Assembly: GCA_951406725.2 (NCBI GenBank)
Contig: OX597828.1
Span: 6,758,001-6,822,000, forward strand
From: Octopus vulgaris
Lineage: Eukaryota
Direction of reading: 5' to 3'
Length of the DNA: 64,000 nt
Positions 850-58,544 of this stretch are shown one piece after another (the stretch's first letter is position 1; the number at the start of each line of letters is the position of its first letter). Made by a program: the position numbers and the translations under genes. The notes below the pieces were generated by a model. It did not search any database. It was not told the origin of the DNA and saw only the letters and a program-made list of their open reading frames with translations.

Positions 850-1290
850 TGAAATATTTAAATGTTTTTCTATACTTATGGGAATATTTCAGCACAAGAC
901 TGGTTCTACAATATAATAATTTTAATTGTGGAGTTATTACATAATACATTTCCTATAGGCAAAGATCACATTTAAAATTAATAGTATTATACGATGGAAT
1001 GTAACTAATAATTTATACTGTATTTAATGTTCGTGTCTTTCAAATACCGAATGTATTTATTAAGATTTGTAGAATTAGATTTCTTCCTAAAGTTAAATGA
1101 AGAAGAATGGTTATGTAATCTAGATTTCGAAGCTGTTGCAGAAGAACCTACAATAACTATACATAGATATTCTTCTTTAAACATTGATTTTCTAAAGAAC
1201 ACGTAAGTCTGTTCTGAAATTATAAAGGAGTTTATTCACTCGTAACTAGCACTCGTGGTTAAAGAAATTAATACTGATTCTACTCTAAGA
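850..1290 (-). mobile_element. Penelope-like element (Neptune-type) GIY-YIG endonuclease C-terminal relic
   Basis: Minus-strand translation gives VGSSATASKSRLHNHSSSF..KKSNSTNLNKYIRYLKDTNIKYSI, then PSYNTINFKCDLCL*EMYY..SHKY. This follows the Penelope pattern YIG.T..FK.R..NH..SF..NST.LSKYIW.LK..CxLCL.EK..CRH. Stops and frameshifts present. Confidence 0.75.
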
Positions 1291-1559
1291 ACCAGTTGTT
1301 AAAATAGGATTGTTAGCAATGTCATAATCAATATTATTCCTATGTGTTAAAGATGCTCTGGATTTCACTGATAGAATTAAATTCATGTAAAGTATCAAAA
1401 ACAGGGTGAGTTAGTTCAACTGAACTAGGATTAAAATTATTAACTATGTTACATTCGAGGCAAGGTTACTACTATTTATATTATCATCATTAGTACGATT
1501 ACTATTTTCACTTTTGCTATTATTATTAGTGTTATCATCATCACAATTACAATTATTAT

Positions 1560-1700
1560 TATCCTACTACTACTACTACAACAACAACTACTACTACTAC
1601 TACTACTACTACTACTACTACTACTACTACTACTACAATTATTATTATTATTATTATTATTATTATTATTATTATTATTATTATTATTATTATTATTATT
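1560..1700. repeat. (CTA)n/(TTA)n microsatellite
   Basis: Visible trinucleotide tracts. Confidence 0.95.
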
Positions 1701-1910
1701 GCGGCGAGCTGGCAGAATTGTTAGCGCACTGGGCGAAATGCTTAGCAGTATTTTATCTGCCGCAACCTTCTGAGTTCAAATTCCGCCGAGTTCGACTTTG
1801 CCTACTTTCTTTGGGATCCGATAAATTATGTAGCAGTTGAACATTGGGGTCGATGTAATCGACACATCCTCTACCCCAAAATGGCTGCCCTTGTGGCAAA
1901 TTTGAAACAA
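1701..1910 (+). mobile_element. tRNA-derived SINE, family A
   Basis: Head gcggcgagctggcagaa with B-box gagttcaaattcc and core GTCGACTTTGCC..GGGGTCGAT; many homologous copies in the window. Confidence 0.85.
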
Positions 1911-2002
1911 TTATTATTATTATTATTATTATTAGTAGTAGTAGTAGTAGTAGTAGTAGTTGCAGCAGCAGCAGCAGCAGCAGCAGTAGTAGTAGTAGTA
2001 GT

Positions 2003-2456
2003 ACATGTTTGACTTTTGCTTTGTATTTGTACGAGTTGACTCCAGGTCTCACCCAGAGACCTCAAGGGACAAGTTAGAAGTTCATGTTGGTGTTATGCCT
2101 AGGGTGCCATATATATTTCGTTTTGCACATAGTATTCTTCTAGAGAATGCTTAAGAAAACAAGGAAATTATGAGTTTGTTTTAAAATTTGAGATTACATA
2201 TGCAGTATATTACGTAGGATATGTGCAGTTCCCATGAGTCCTATCTTTTGAATCTCTGCCATTTTGGAGTTTCCTAGTATCTGACCTACGTAGCAGTCAG
2301 CACCTTTTGCTATCATTCCTAGGGCACCTATGGCAACAGGTATTGTTTTAGTCTTCAGGTTCCACTTTTTGCCAATTTCTATTTCAAGATATTTATACTT
2401 GCCCAGTTTTTGGTTTTGTCACATACATTTTTATCGATTGGGATAGTCATATCAAT
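2003..2456 (-). mobile_element. R4/Dong-type non-LTR retrotransposon 3' fragment (RLE endonuclease)
   Basis: IDMTIPIDKN..KLGKYKYLEIEIGKKWNLKTKTIPVAIGALGMI..IQKIGLMGTAHILR, homologous to the ORF at 54753-55106; flanked by TAG and TTA repeats. Confidence 0.85.
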
Positions 2457-54655: not shown

Positions 54656-56411
54656 CAGTAGTTTTATTTTTATAGCATGCTTTCACTTCACTACCGAGCG
54701 CAGCTCTGTGTGCCTTGGGTATGTGCTGTGATTTGTTGTGATGCTCTGATGGTTATTGTATGGAAAGTGTTCTGCGTAGGATGTGTGCAGTGCCTAGTAG
54801 TGCAATTTTCTGTATGTTATATGTGTTTGTAAGTCCTGGTGTTTTTGTTATGTATTTGTCTGAATATTTTTTTATCATGCCTAATGCACCTACTATGATA
54901 GGAATTGTTTCTGTTTTCAGATTCCACATTCTAGTTACCTCTATTTCCAGGTCTTTGTATTTTGAGAGTCTCTCCATTTCTTTTAGAGACACGTTGTCAT
55001 CTGCCGGTATTGATACATCAATTAGAAAGCATTTTTTTTCTTCATGATATCTGACAACTATATCTGGTCTGTTGGCCTTAATTTCTCTATCTGTGTGTAT
55101 CGGCATATCCCAGAGTATGGTTGCTTTCTCGTTTTCTGTGATCTTTTCTGGTGTGTGCCTATACCATCTTTTTTCTGTTGTTATTCCATAATGTTGGCAT
55201 AGCTTCCAATGTATGTAGGTTCCAACTCTGTCATGTCTGTGAATATATTCCTTCTTAGCCAGGACTGGGCAGCTAGAGATAATATGATTTATTGTTTCTT
55301 GTCCATCTCCACATATTCTGCAGTTACTTGTTTCTTTTCATTACATGTTTTTGGTAATTTCTGGTGGGGAGGCTTTGGTCTTGTGCTGCAATTAAAAATC
55401 CCTCTGTTTCTGCTTTGAGTCCTGAGCTTCTCAACCATTGCTGGGATTTTTCTTTGTCTATTTCTTTTGCGTTTAGTTCAGTGCAGTATTTACCATGAAG
55501 GGGCTTTTCTTGCCATCGTTTTATCATGGTTCGTTGCTGTTCTATTTTTAGTTTGGATTTCATTTGTTTTATAGCTTTTGTTGTTTCTTCATCATCTTCT
55601 TCTTCTTCTTCTTCATGTTTATTAGGTGGTATGATTTCTTGTTTGTATTTGTCAGCTTCCTTAAATACTGAGAACAGTTTTTTGTTTTGCTCGTGTTTTG
55701 CCGCTATCTGGATCAGTTTTCCTTCCTTCTGAAGTAGATATTTTTGCAGTCCTATGGTGGTTATTTTATAGTAGTTTTCCAGCTGTATAAGGCCTCTACC
55801 ACCTTCTATACGTTGTATATATATAGTCTTTCTATGTCAGATTTTGGGTGATGCATCCTAGATCCTGTCATTATTTTTCTTGTTTTCCTATCTATTTTGG
55901 ACAGTTCATTTCGTGTCCAGTTAAGGATATTGTAGCTGTAACTTATAACTGGGACAGCTAAAGTGTTGATACCTATTATATTGTTTTTAGCATTGAGCTC
56001 TGTTTTTAGTATTGATCTAACTCGTCTATAATATTCTTTTTTTATTTTCTCTTTCATTTGTGTGTGTTGTGTCTTATCTAGTTCATGGATTCCTAAGTAT
56101 TTGTAAGTTTGGCTTTGGTCTAATTCATTTATTTCATTGGTTTTATCTAGTGTGATGTTGTTACTCTTAACTAGTTTTCCTCTTTTCATGGTTACTTTGG
56201 CGCATTTTTCTAATCCAAATTTCATATCTATTTCTTTGGTAAATCCATGAACTGTCTGTAATAGTGTTTCCAGCTGTTTGTCATTTGCAGCGTATAGTTT
56301 TAGGTCATCCATATATAAAAGGTGGCTGATCGTTTTGCCGTAGCATTTATATCCGCATCCAGTTCTATTTAGCATATCAGATAGAGGTGACAGTGCCAAG
56401 CAGAAAAGGAG
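54656..56411 (-). mobile_element. R4/Dong-clade non-LTR retrotransposon, 5'-truncated, inserted in (TAA)n
   Basis: RT HLLYMDDLKLY, FGLEKCA, YKYLGI; AAQDQSLPTRNY; RHD; RLE ILWDMPIHTD..NRPDIV..IDVSIP..KYKDL. Pure (TTA)n on both flanks; frameshifts present. Confidence 0.93.
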
Positions 56412-56820
56412 TTATTATTATTATTATTATTATTATTATTATTATTATTATTATTATTATTATTATTATTATTATCATCATTATTATCATCATTATTATT
56501 ATTATTTATTATTATTATTATTATTATTATTATTATTATTATTATTATTATTATTATCATTATTATTGATAGAATCGGTAAAACTTCGGAGAAGTTCTAT
56601 TGCTATATTAGTATATTCACTTTTTCATCTGACTCGAAATCTCTTTATAGTTTAGCTTTGACTCTCAATAAAATAAGCACCAGTTCAATACTGAAGTCCA
56701 CTTAAATGAGTCTCCCTCACTCAGAATCTTTGAACTTGTTCTGTGTAAGGAGCGAATATCACATGGTGGTTGTCATCGGTACAGTTGTTCTCGTCTTCGT
56801 GTATTCGAAGGCTTCAATGC

Positions 56821-57372
56821 ACAAAAGCCTTTGCTCCGTGATGTGAGTTAACGGCTACCTTTGCGAAACGTTTCGACCTCATGCTCGGTCCGCCAAGAGT
56901 ATTTTCTCTCGCCCATTTTTATGCATTAAATCTCGATCTGCTGCTGCAAAAAACTGAAACTGTTGAGAGAAATCTCAATCAAACTAGAACGTAGAAAGTG
57001 CGTTTCACCTTATGCTGTAGATGTGAAGGGGTCGGATTCAATGGATGCCTCGGTAAACATATGGGGATGAGCAAAACCGTAACTTGCTCAAATCTGTTGA
57101 TCTGCATGTTGGTAATAAGTGATGCAAATCTATGGCGTCGGCCAGAGTTGTAGGACGATGGACAGACAGGCTGGATAAGATGTTTAGGGTCTAGTTCAGT
57201 CCAGTCCTTCACGTGGAAAGAGACTGGGAATTGACTGAGAGACAGCCTGAATTGACTGAGAGACAAAAGCCTTTGCTCCGTGATGTGAGTTAACGGCTAC
57301 CTTTGCGAAACGTGGAAAGAGACTACCAGTCCTTCACGTGGAAAGAGACTGGGAATTGACTGAGAGACAGCC
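56821..57372. repeat. Interleaved short direct duplications
   Basis: 51-bp unit at 56821-56871 and 57263-57313; 47-bp unit at 57201-57247 and 57326-57372. Confidence 0.9.
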
Positions 57373-58396
57373 AGAGATGGAGCACGTATTCATCGCTCTT
57401 ATATGATGCTGCCTGACCGTCGTGCTTAGTCCCGAATTTTATCGAGCCAAAACATGGCACAGACATATGCAATTCTATTATTGCACAGACATATGCAATT
57501 CCATTAGGGACCGAAATAACTAAGAGTCACGAGACTTAAATAAAACATTCCAAAATTCAGTTGATTACCTATTGTTGACAAAGATTCATGCAAACTAAAC
57601 TATTCTCTTCATAATCTTGAGAAAGATTTAACTTTTTCTTTCCAGCAGGATAAGCGACCATGTAGAATGCCTTCCTATGTATACGTTTATAATTGATTTT
57701 TTTTTCTGATTGCATACACCTATGATACAAGGCATTCCAGCCTTGACTATTTCATCATCTCAGACACATCTCAAACTGTACTAAGTTATCCAATTTCTTA
57801 TATCTCTCTTATAGATACGGTAAGGTATGATTTTAGAGACAAGCTGCTTCTATTTCCAGCACGTTGAGTGATCTAGTTTCTATGGAAAATTAAAATAGAA
57901 TTTCAAGATATGTCTAAATTGGTTTATATGAAATATTTCGCCCTTTAAAACTCTCTAAAAAAATTCTTCAAATAATGGAAAAGAGAGGTTGTTTTATATT
58001 ATTGAAGGAATTATATGTTAAAACAGTTGAATTACTTGGGTATTATTGAATCTAAATCGAAATAAATTCCGTAGGCTTTTCTATGCCGTGTTTATTTCTG
58101 TTTGCTTTCTCGTCTGTTTTTATATAACTTCTTCCAGCTTATGGCAAGATTTACCTATCTTATACATACAAGCATTCAAAATGTGTGTGTGCGTGTGTAT
58201 GTGTGATTATGTGAATGTATGTTGTGTGTGTGTGTGTAGTATTTCTTTATACGCGTATATAAAATATAAAGAAATATAGTAATATGTTATATTAGAATAT
58301 AAAATCACAAATTCTCATAAAAAGCATGTAGCACTTCACGACTTTATTTGGCAATGCAGGAAACTCCCGATGGAGTAATACGTTTATATATATATA

Positions 58397-58544
58397 TATA
58401 AACAACTTATAAATAAGGGCAAAAGAAAAAATTTCTTATGCCAAATATGCCGAAACTAGACACATTGTCCATAACCATATTTGGTTAATGCCATATTTGG
58501 CATTAGAAATTTTTTCTTTTGCCCTTATTTATAAGTTGTTTATA
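58397..58544. repeat. Inverted repeat with 53-bp arms and 42-bp spacer, next to a TA tract
   Basis: tataaacaacttataaataagggcaaaag...ccaaatatg / catatttgg...cttttgcccttatttataagttgtttata, one mismatch. Confidence 0.9.

Follow-up and report, generated by a model that had tools for sequence, protein, structure and literature searches.

The window (the whole 64-kb stretch of DNA that was analysed, picked for having hammerheads) holds nine recognisable hammerhead folds and decayed open reading frames (ORFs) resembling those of Penelope-like elements (PLEs; Table 1). We scanned it with a descriptor permitting U4C, A6U and one extra base, and recovered six type I folds at the places where an earlier note had listed them (16988+, 19865-, 29421+, 51718+, 32534+ and 32517-, named by core position 3 and strand), whereas 100 block-wise dinucleotide shuffles gave a mean of 0.06 and a maximum of 2 matches, none reaching 6; this control is slightly flattering because the permitted variants were chosen after the motifs had been seen. 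The reversed window sequence gave 0 matches. A second descriptor returned 8 matches scoring at least 14 (40 shuffles: mean 0.3, maximum 2), adding 5765+ and 58765-, with 4695- as the inverted sister of 5765+. Type I topology is present in eight motifs under the two descriptors, and the six first listed sort into four families, matching the earlier count of at least four sequence-unrelated elements. Small hammerhead folds in this TA-repeat-rich window are real.

Table 1 Features of the window
Position	Strand	Feature	Evidence
760..818	-	Possible decayed hammerhead, about 40 nt past the end of the 854..1450 ORF	By eye only; no descriptor match
854..1450	-	Decayed Hydra-type PLE ORF end: reverse transcriptase (RT) thumb, linker, GIY-YIG	HMM E = 1.5e-10 and 4.7e-4; frameshift-aware score
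4604..4743	-	Inverted 5' arm with decayed U3-A8 hammerhead (core 4695)	81% identity to 5717-5853 over 140 nt; alignment; fold
4740..4985	+	5'-truncated Hydra-type endonuclease C-terminus and stop codon	HMM E = 2e-8, profile 589-666 of 668; 0/50 shuffles
5126..5553	+	Tandem pair of an unrelated dispersed repeat, inserted in 3' UTR	Many copies across the window
5762..5828	+	Type I hammerhead in 3' UTR of the 4740 relic	Second-descriptor score 16.08; stems I and II in MFE
16984..17054	+	Type I hammerhead, canonical core	First descriptor; stem analysis
19829..19872	-	Type I hammerhead, U4C, Hydra-type stem III	Both descriptors
29352..29541	+	190-bp unit with loop-less minimal hammerhead 29417-29452	Descriptor; copy comparison; contig depth
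31200..31500	+	Old Hydra-type relic: RT thumb joined by deletion to endonuclease end	Frameshift-aware score 55.5 (shuffle maximum 41.0, 0/100)
32436..32615		Young head-to-head duplication	Descriptor; alignment (89 matches, 0 mismatches, 2 gaps)
50931..51130	+	Additional Hydra-type RT relic	HMM E = 0.008; 0/60 shuffles
51650..51848	+	Second A6U minimal-hammerhead copy, fold 51714-51749	Descriptor; copy comparison
52023..52071	-	Decayed Hydra-type hammerhead	Retains stem II and the stem III palindrome, with an inserted core base and a disrupted stem I; fails both descriptors
58401..58543		Inverted repeat beside (TA)n, 51-bp arms	Fold z = -15.2; 49/50 matching
58714..58769	-	Type I hammerhead, U4C, perfect palindromic stem III, G-U-rich stem II	Second-descriptor score 16.12
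60490..60773	-	Additional Hydra-type RT-thumb relic	HMM E = 7.6e-5; 0/60 and 0/50 shuffles

The least ordinary feature of these motifs is the core, which is canonical only at 16988+ and carries U4C at 19865, 32517, 32534 and 58765 (three families), A6U at 29421 and 51718, and U3-A8 at 5765; with such altered catalytic cores, several of the hammerheads would cut RNA poorly or not at all. Stem III, described earlier as tiny or palindromic throughout, is self-complementary at 4/4 positions (29421, 51718) and 8/9 positions (19865, 32517, 32534), but imperfectly so at 16988 (6/8). With 30-nt flanks, the probability of stem I is 0.00 for 16988, 29421, 51718, 32517 and 32534, 0.28 for 5765 and 0.92 for 19865, and folding-energy z-scores of nine candidate folds range from -1.99 to 1.04. 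Between copies (two per family), the stems of 29421 and 51718 are identical, and 5765+ and 4695- differ by one G-C to G-U change in stem I. The earlier note had suggested a check against Rfam, whose hammerhead models do not appear among the 150 of 371 window matches listed and matched in 0 of 5 local searches (5765+ and 51718+ lay outside the searched set). The matches listed were microRNA-type, fell onto microsatellites and hairpins, were all below the gathering score, and were rejected.

Other candidates were set aside. Two weaker folds had been proposed, of which 52022- stands as a decayed hammerhead, given that one base is inserted in the core and stem I is disrupted, whereas 6219- was absent from three scans and folded no better than shuffles (z = -0.23). 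The high-scoring match 46090+ is a microsatellite artefact, and 47667-, 25016+ and 21535+ fall inside the shuffle range. By themselves, palindromic stem III strings with GAAA lack significance (43 seen; 26.6 ± 5.5, maximum 46, in 200 shuffles), so 29848+, 50850+ and remains seen by eye at 760-818(-), 330-400(-) and 31533-31566(+) were left uncounted.

At 4604-5853, a hammerhead and an endonuclease relic belong to one and the same element. The order is inverted arm, truncated endonuclease end, 3' UTR, hammerhead, tail and TA; that is, a 5'-truncated endonuclease end is followed by its own hammerhead and has an inverted copy at its 5' junction. The hammerhead (5765+) has a covariant U3-A8 core, an 8-bp stem II and a palindromic stem III, with a predicted cut after 5825 and a tail to 5853; second-descriptor matches scoring 16 or more average 0.025 in 40 shuffles. 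The repeat inserted in the 3' UTR is one that we take to be a SINE; the SINE families of the window suggest an octopus as its host. A hammerhead 3' of the ORF is also the layout of L001. In the window this is the one hammerhead family tied to a Penelope ORF, a link that the earlier note had suggested looking for; no parent ORF was found there for 16988, 19865, 32534, 58765 or 29421/51718. The GIY-YIG relic once placed at 4690 is real from 4740 onwards, but 4604-4743 is the inverted arm and not ORF. The legend to Fig. 2 of Craig et al. (2021, PMC8557442) gives a PLE insertion layout with the same parts.

The ORF relics resemble those of Hydra-clade rather than Neptune PLEs, judging from motifs and a by-eye consensus comparison rather than from a tree. 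The relic reported near 850 is genuine and lies on the minus strand: its frameshift-aware score is 142.7 (shuffle maximum 44.3, 0/50), and it contains stops, frameshifts and a deletion within the GIY-YIG core, its 5' limit near 1450 being set by eye. The one reported at 31200 passes only the frameshift-aware test, and does so for its RT-thumb part rather than for GIY-YIG; the relic has no HMM match, 2/60 shuffles score as highly, the endonuclease end was read by eye, and contig depth in run X1 is about single-locus over most of the relic. Homologs P0030, P0035 and P0050 carry the RWK and DKT motifs of the RT N-terminus, a region missing from the window relics. Homologs have no CCHH, and in them the CxCX5C linker is intact, as are CxxC and CxH close to the conserved E and N; in the 854 and 4740 relics these motifs are decayed yet similarly spaced (CDLC is kept at 854), and both relics lack the CCHH region, through deletion or otherwise. 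Neither Neptune mark, the CX2-5CxxC linker or the CCHH endonuclease, occurs in homologs of the window relics. Furthermore, comparison with published Hydra hammerheads finds a Hydra-type palindromic stem III in three of the four families first listed. The Neptune-type Penelope of the earlier note is therefore unsupported. Pfam gave no GIY-YIG or PLE match for nine stop-free relic pieces and five homologs, a word-index search with the 4677 ORF returned nothing, and the ESM Atlas held no usable match.

The duplication at 32436-32615 is head-to-head, similar to the inverted layout at 4604-5853. Its arms carry hammerheads at 32462-32523 (minus) and 32527-32591 (plus), each with U4C and an extra U ahead of GAAA and each followed by a tail of about 30 nt, the right arm ending in (TA)n. 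Both folds of this pair were noted before, but they are opposite-strand arms of one insertion, and RNA spanning it is predicted to form a long hairpin rather than a dimeric ribozyme. Across 13 nt covering stem III and the predicted cut site, this family has the same sequence as the ORF-linked L001 hammerhead, and run X1 contigs contain at least eight other inverted junctions of the family, with differing breakpoints and each at about single-locus depth. Both long inverted repeats reported for the window, this one and that at 58401-58543, exist; the latter contains no hammerhead.

Among the solo units, 16988+ has a long loop II and an imperfect palindromic stem III and lies inside a 287-bp unit (16907-17193) between (TA)n runs, and 19865- belongs to a unit about 85 bp long with (TA)n on one side and (CA/TA)n on the other, 20 nt around its stem III being identical to the published Hydra-2_Ajap. 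The tail of 58765- reaches (TA)n at 58625-58638, and an inverted tail copy lies at 58975-59030. All 10 motif positions (about 8 independent insertions) are followed within 225 nt, in the 3' direction, by a (TA)4+ run, while 24.6% of random positions have one within 250 nt. The earlier statement that each element is bordered by a TA-rich microsatellite is nevertheless too strong, because the element ends at 5765+/4695- and 32517- abut only short TA runs.

These folds are probably the 3' ends of PLEs, chiefly from the Hydra clade, that survive in (TA)n as short 5'-truncated copies, many of them inverted. We favour this reading because of the 4604-5853 layout, the Hydra signature, the stem III palindromes shared with published Hydra hammerheads and with the independent ORF-linked hammerhead of L001, the (TA)n association, and the recurrent head-to-head junctions. 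By analogy with published PLE work, the GIY-YIG endonuclease would nick TA-rich DNA, the RT would start inside the RNA 3' tail a few tens of bases beyond the ribozyme, early termination would leave ribozyme and tail alone, and a second short copy would often land inverted. The ribozymes would cut weakly if at all, aided by dimers or protein, and most solo copies are likely inert. Counting against this reading are the restriction of the ORF link to a single family, the lack of Rfam matches, monomer folds that are mostly not favoured, and the A6U copies, whose 5' ends lie within 9 nt of each other, which is unexpected under random truncation.

The A6U family is the only remaining candidate for a non-autonomous family. 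Both window copies (86% alike over 101 nt) share a 3' end at (TA)n; the first lies between (TA)n runs and has an extra A after A9. At 29462 the summed contig depth in run X1 is 3.67 million, as against 54-105 in the flanks, a ratio of about 37,000-68,000 that does not equal copy number; the family likely numbers around 10^4 copies or above. Another PLE clade, with its parent outside the window, is the probable source of the family, which may be a non-autonomous unit. It is possible, if on balance unlikely, that this family at least is a discrete SINE-like unit that would be transcribed alone and rely on a PLE enzyme acting in trans for insertion into (TA)n. The shared 3' end and closely placed 5' ends of both copies and the great depth, beside a Hydra relic at 31200 near single-locus depth, are consistent with such a unit, as are X14 contigs covering 29406-29528, whose RNA nature is a guess. 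On the other side, no promoter was identified in the unit, and 262 X1 contig ends extend past 29416 in the upstream direction, for a median of 99 nt, into dissimilar sequence of low agreement (reads at the TA borders skipped), while depth falls to 1.2 million at 29391; many copies therefore lack the 5' part of the window copy. We regard as distinctly doubtful the further idea of a discrete, non-autonomous 190-bp Penelope parasite with tens of thousands of copies in (TA)n and a catalytically crippled A6U core which, together with U4C in three unrelated Hydra families, would mark a lineage keeping the hammerhead fold not as a catalyst but as a signal by which the retrotransposon protein achieves recognition or packaging.

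That the units are non-LTR retrozymes, tandem hammerhead repeats yielding circular RNAs of which the window has only monomers, is improbable. Units of 190-290 bp fall inside the 150-450 bp range, and Li et al. (2026, bioRxiv 10.64898/2026.07.22.740005) report monomer fractions anywhere between 0 and 1 and derive retrozymes from PLE ends; however, the 64-kb window contains no tandem hammerhead unit or retrozyme array, no abundant end-to-start joint appears among the 15 of 44 joints listed, and the motifs are minimal or Hydra-type with altered cores, unlike the canonical hammerheads that define retrozyme repeats. The link to PLEs and (TA)n proposed earlier is supported; the retrozyme-like, non-autonomous character is not, truncated or inverted copies of autonomous PLEs accounting for most motifs. 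Chance matches in AT-rich repetitive DNA are hardly credible, for the Rfam result, the unremarkable fold energies and the artefact at 46090+ are set against both shuffle controls and the 13-20 nt identities to ORF-linked Hydra hammerheads.

Reading the motifs as PLE ends makes the families unannotated additions to a published PLE-hammerhead pattern. Ribozyme-bearing PLE ends are dense in the window and invisible to Pfam and Rfam. Exact motif scans found nothing in viral or metagenome contigs, and of 20 stretches picked out of viral contigs with a profile, none was confirmed. The literature searched (octopus hammerheads, A6U, U4C; subscription papers mostly outside its scope) yielded no account of these families, and the main text of the 2026 Octopus vulgaris repeat annotation does not mention ribozymes. 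A genome-wide count of such ends may be new; work by Lunse et al. in 2017, reportedly on minimal PLE hammerheads, may already include such variants. The question touched is why PLEs keep hammerheads at all when hammerhead mutants have no effect on PLE insertion in vitro (Frangieh 2024), catalysis being dispensable there. To probe whether cleavage matters, high-copy families bearing A6U, U4C and U3-A8 cores would serve as natural mutants.

Among known systems, Neptune-clade PLEs share a C-terminal GIY-YIG domain, a Zn-finger-like linker, microsatellite bias and minimal hammerheads, but have a CX2-5CxxC linker and a CCHH endonuclease, both absent from relatives of the window relics. Non-LTR retrozymes (Cervera and de la Pena 2020, PMC7229834; Li et al. 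2026) are likewise small, non-coding and PLE-related with type I hammerheads, but form tandem arrays yielding circular RNA, whereas the window units are solo or head-to-head in (TA)n. Most minimal hammerheads are single motifs, probably from truncated PLEs, and opposite-strand pairs and U3-A8 cores also occur among them (Cervera and de la Pena 2014, PMC4209133), as in the window; 29421/51718 share with them a short stem I, an extra base between 9 and 10.1, G10.1-C11.1 and a loop-less palindromic stem III, but differ in the A6U core (2/2 copies) and very high depth. Hydra-clade PLEs (Craig et al. 2021, PMC8557442), described with hammerheads at the 3' end and a preference for (TA)n targets, as in Hydra-1_Obim of Octopus bimaculoides, share the C-terminal GIY-YIG without CCHH, the CxCX5C linker, (TA)n targets, inverted 5'-truncated copies, and a type I hammerhead with a palindromic 4-bp stem III and an extra base before GAAA, lying between a few tens and about 150 nt upstream of the 3' end. 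The window families differ by eye from Hydra-1_Obim in sequence, and where the Hydra rows of File S2 in that paper all have a CUGA core, three window families have CCGA and one has U3-A8.

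A hammerhead attached to a Penelope-like element (PLE) ORF, which the earlier note had proposed to look for, was found in one family, at 4604-5853. The segment 4604-4743 is an inverted copy of 5717-5853 (81% identity), a single hammerhead type, with U3-A8 in its core, is found in both, and between them lie a truncated endonuclease end (4740-4985) and then its 3' UTR, broken up by an unrelated repeat pair; short TA runs adjoin both ends of the insertion. The layout is the same as that of PLE insertions in the available text of Craig et al. (2021, PMC8557442), in which the 5' end carries a 5'-truncated copy in inverse orientation.

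We used the stop-free piece 1008-1235 (minus strand) as the relic query, which returned 12 relatives (E up to 0.001). Through one of them we reached 46 longer RT-endonuclease proteins, whose profile was run against the masked window and, as a control, the reversed window, where it gave nothing below E 6. Three ORF relics had been claimed: the 850 and 4690 regions match the profile, and the one at 31200 passed a frameshift-aware test alone, in its RT-thumb part (0/100 shuffles; in two adjacent control regions, neither of which stood out, 16/30 and 1/30 shuffles were equally high). The relatives of the window relics have RWK, DKT, and the CxCX5C linker and lack CCHH, a combination that defines Hydra and not Neptune elements (Craig et al. 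2021), and P0035, a homologous RT-endonuclease protein, is close to the published Hydra-2_Amil consensus when compared by eye. Because of these motifs, and on that by-eye comparison, the relatives are classed as Hydra rather than as the Neptune type first named.

RT-endonuclease relics and other repeats in the window
Feature	Coordinates	Strand	Evidence or description
RT-endonuclease relic, profile match	854-1151	-	profile of 46 proteins
RT-endonuclease relic, profile match	4740-4973	+	profile of 46 proteins
RT-endonuclease relic, profile match	50943-51086	+	profile of 46 proteins
RT-endonuclease relic, profile match	60493-60630	-	profile of 46 proteins
RT fragment	25312-25950	-	RVT_1 E 3.6e-6, under gathering score
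Non-LTR retrotransposon 3' half, fairly intact	54750-56411	-	RVT_1, zf-RVT; 90% identity to database protein; between (ATT)n/(TTC)n runs
Tc1-type DNA transposon relic	14800-16314		inverted ends 194 bp, 85%; transposase fragment PF01498
Direct repeat	20005-20126, 21170-21291		122 bp, 98% identity; TA/CA microsatellite immediately before each copy
Degenerate minisatellites	35566-35888, 9218-9454		33-bp and 13-bp units

Hydra hammerheads have a palindromic 4-bp stem III, often with an additional base before GAAA (Craig et al. 2021, File S2). Around stem III, 20 bases are identical between 19865- (named, like the others, by window position and strand) and Hydra-2_Ajap, and 13 between 32534+ and an L001 hammerhead lying downstream of a Hydra-type ORF; L001 is an animal-like stretch within a bacterial metagenome-assembled genome. 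The terminal part of a Hydra-type PLE at L001 947-1900, whose hammerhead is canonical, probably entered that assembly as contamination from an animal host. In 58765-, the extended stem II (58730-58757, minus strand) contains several G-U pairs, its 3' strand having G where A would pair; speculatively, the stem may pair on the minus strand only, or an RNA intermediate may undergo A-to-I editing. In an older, moderately repeated element (29694-29893, depth ~30-90x flank), position 29848 has a palindromic stem III resembling that of Hydra elements, and the core is not recognisable.

The A6U family (29421+ and 51718+) is unlike the Hydra type and, save for A6U, fits the loop-less minimal consensus in the available text of Cervera and de la Pena (2014, PMC4209133). 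In both copies, the stem II 5' strand recurs ~40 nt downstream (29436-29475, 51733-51772), and an alternative hairpin burying the cut site is predicted. We aligned contigs from 4 of 24 sequencing runs to 29200-32700. In run X1, summed depth rose from 54-105 in unique flanks to 3.67 million at 29462 and 0.70 million at 32436, and the pattern was the same in X7 and X8; we read this as ~10^4 copies or more of the A6U family and 10^3-10^4 of the 32436 family (a head-to-head duplication in the window), summed depth being inflated by overlapping contigs and not equal to copy number. Position 29424 showed no change among the variant rows listed (40 of 129), and a family-wide A6U core is weakly suggested; of 1806 loose ends, 24 were listed. 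Contigs of X14, which is RNA by guess only, cover the A6U element. It is possible, though rather doubtful, that this family is a discrete non-autonomous unit: the two copies start at most 9 nt apart, but on the upstream side of 29416 the sequence of 262 contig ends is different. The retrozyme-like nature proposed earlier for the window's elements is very improbable, since tandem units, which define retrozymes in the available texts of Cervera and de la Pena (2020, PMC7229834) and Li et al. (2026), are absent from the window.

The window (64 kb) is AT-rich animal DNA, probably of an octopus to judge by its SINE families, with many microsatellites and transposon relics (16.7% simple-repeat masked). 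A type I hammerhead descriptor, with tolerances (U4C, A6U, one additional base beside stem II) chosen after the motifs were known, matched 16988+, 19865-, 29421+, 51718+, 32534+, and 32517-, bearing out the six claimed folds (100 block-wise dinucleotide shuffles: mean 0.06, maximum 2; reversed sequence: 0). A second, scored descriptor that additionally permits U3-A8 gave eight matches at or above its cut-off of 14 (40 shuffles: mean 0.3, maximum 2); it recovered 5/6 of the first folds, missing 16988+, which its stem III rule excludes, and added 5765+ and 58765-. Its match at 46090+ was set aside as a microsatellite artefact. Among the weaker candidates, 52022- is a decayed fold with stem I broken, and 6219- was rejected, as it forms no hammerhead. 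The suggested check with Rfam models gave no hammerhead among the matches listed for the window (150 of 371) and 0/5 in local searches, folding-energy z-scores were unremarkable, and the hammerhead fold was not predicted for most monomers, weak monomer folding being the expectation for PLE hammerheads in the literature available to us. These three results count against reading the motifs as hammerheads. Chance is excluded for the main motifs, both descriptors having matched far less often in shuffles than in the window. The core is canonical in only 1/8 intact folds, whereas CUGA stands in every Hydra row of Craig et al. (2021, File S2), and the altered cores are the least ordinary feature of these hammerheads. 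The available text of Perreault et al. (2011) reports activity lowered by U4C and A6C, and U3-A8 as found naturally.

Microsatellite borders, also claimed, held in part: a (TA)4+ run (118 in the window) lies within 225 nt 3' of all 10 motif positions tested, representing ~8 insertions; for random positions, the share with such a run inside 250 nt is 24.6%. The end of three motifs adjoins only a short TA stretch. Both inverted repeats were confirmed. Because the two arms of 32436-32615 lie on opposite strands, RNA transcribed across both is predicted to fold into a long hairpin hiding the ribozyme. Its family has at least eight further inverted junctions with differing break points (15 of 44 joints listed), which fit repeated truncation with inversion. 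The near-perfect 51-bp inverted repeat at 58401-58543 (centre 42 nt) adjoins (TA)n, contains no hammerhead, and may represent either a small foldback element or the tail of a PLE in inverted orientation. Single contigs of X1 and X7 have 42-43 letters in place of the element at 30533-30959 (~430 bp, very high depth), so it probably inserted recently into a (TC)n/TA stretch and is polymorphic there.

Anatomy, the one-family linkage, TA context, and inversions are observed. In the likely mechanism, inferred from published PLE work, the GIY-YIG domain would nick TA-rich DNA, reverse transcription would begin from the 3' tail, and early termination would be frequent. The available text of Frangieh et al. 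(2024) describes cleavage at AT-rich DNA and initiation within the RNA, at the tail; it also describes a hammerhead active solely with protein and hammerhead mutants that leave insertion unaffected.

We found no description of the window's hammerhead families in the literature searched, and Lunse et al. (2017) or a supplement file to Cervera and de la Pena (2014) may contain these variants; four motif words returned nothing but the shared Hydra stem III from the supplement of Craig et al. (2021). The available main texts of two cephalopod repeat papers leave ribozymes unmentioned, and 235 Rfam hammerheads are reported, in a source available in part, for the giant squid. A preference for (TA)n is recorded for Hydra-1_Obim of Octopus bimaculoides (Craig et al. 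2021, File S1). The system is already known: PLE hammerheads date from 2014, and the association of Hydra with (TA)n, together with a member from octopus, dates from 2021. The hammerheads of the window are additional families within it.
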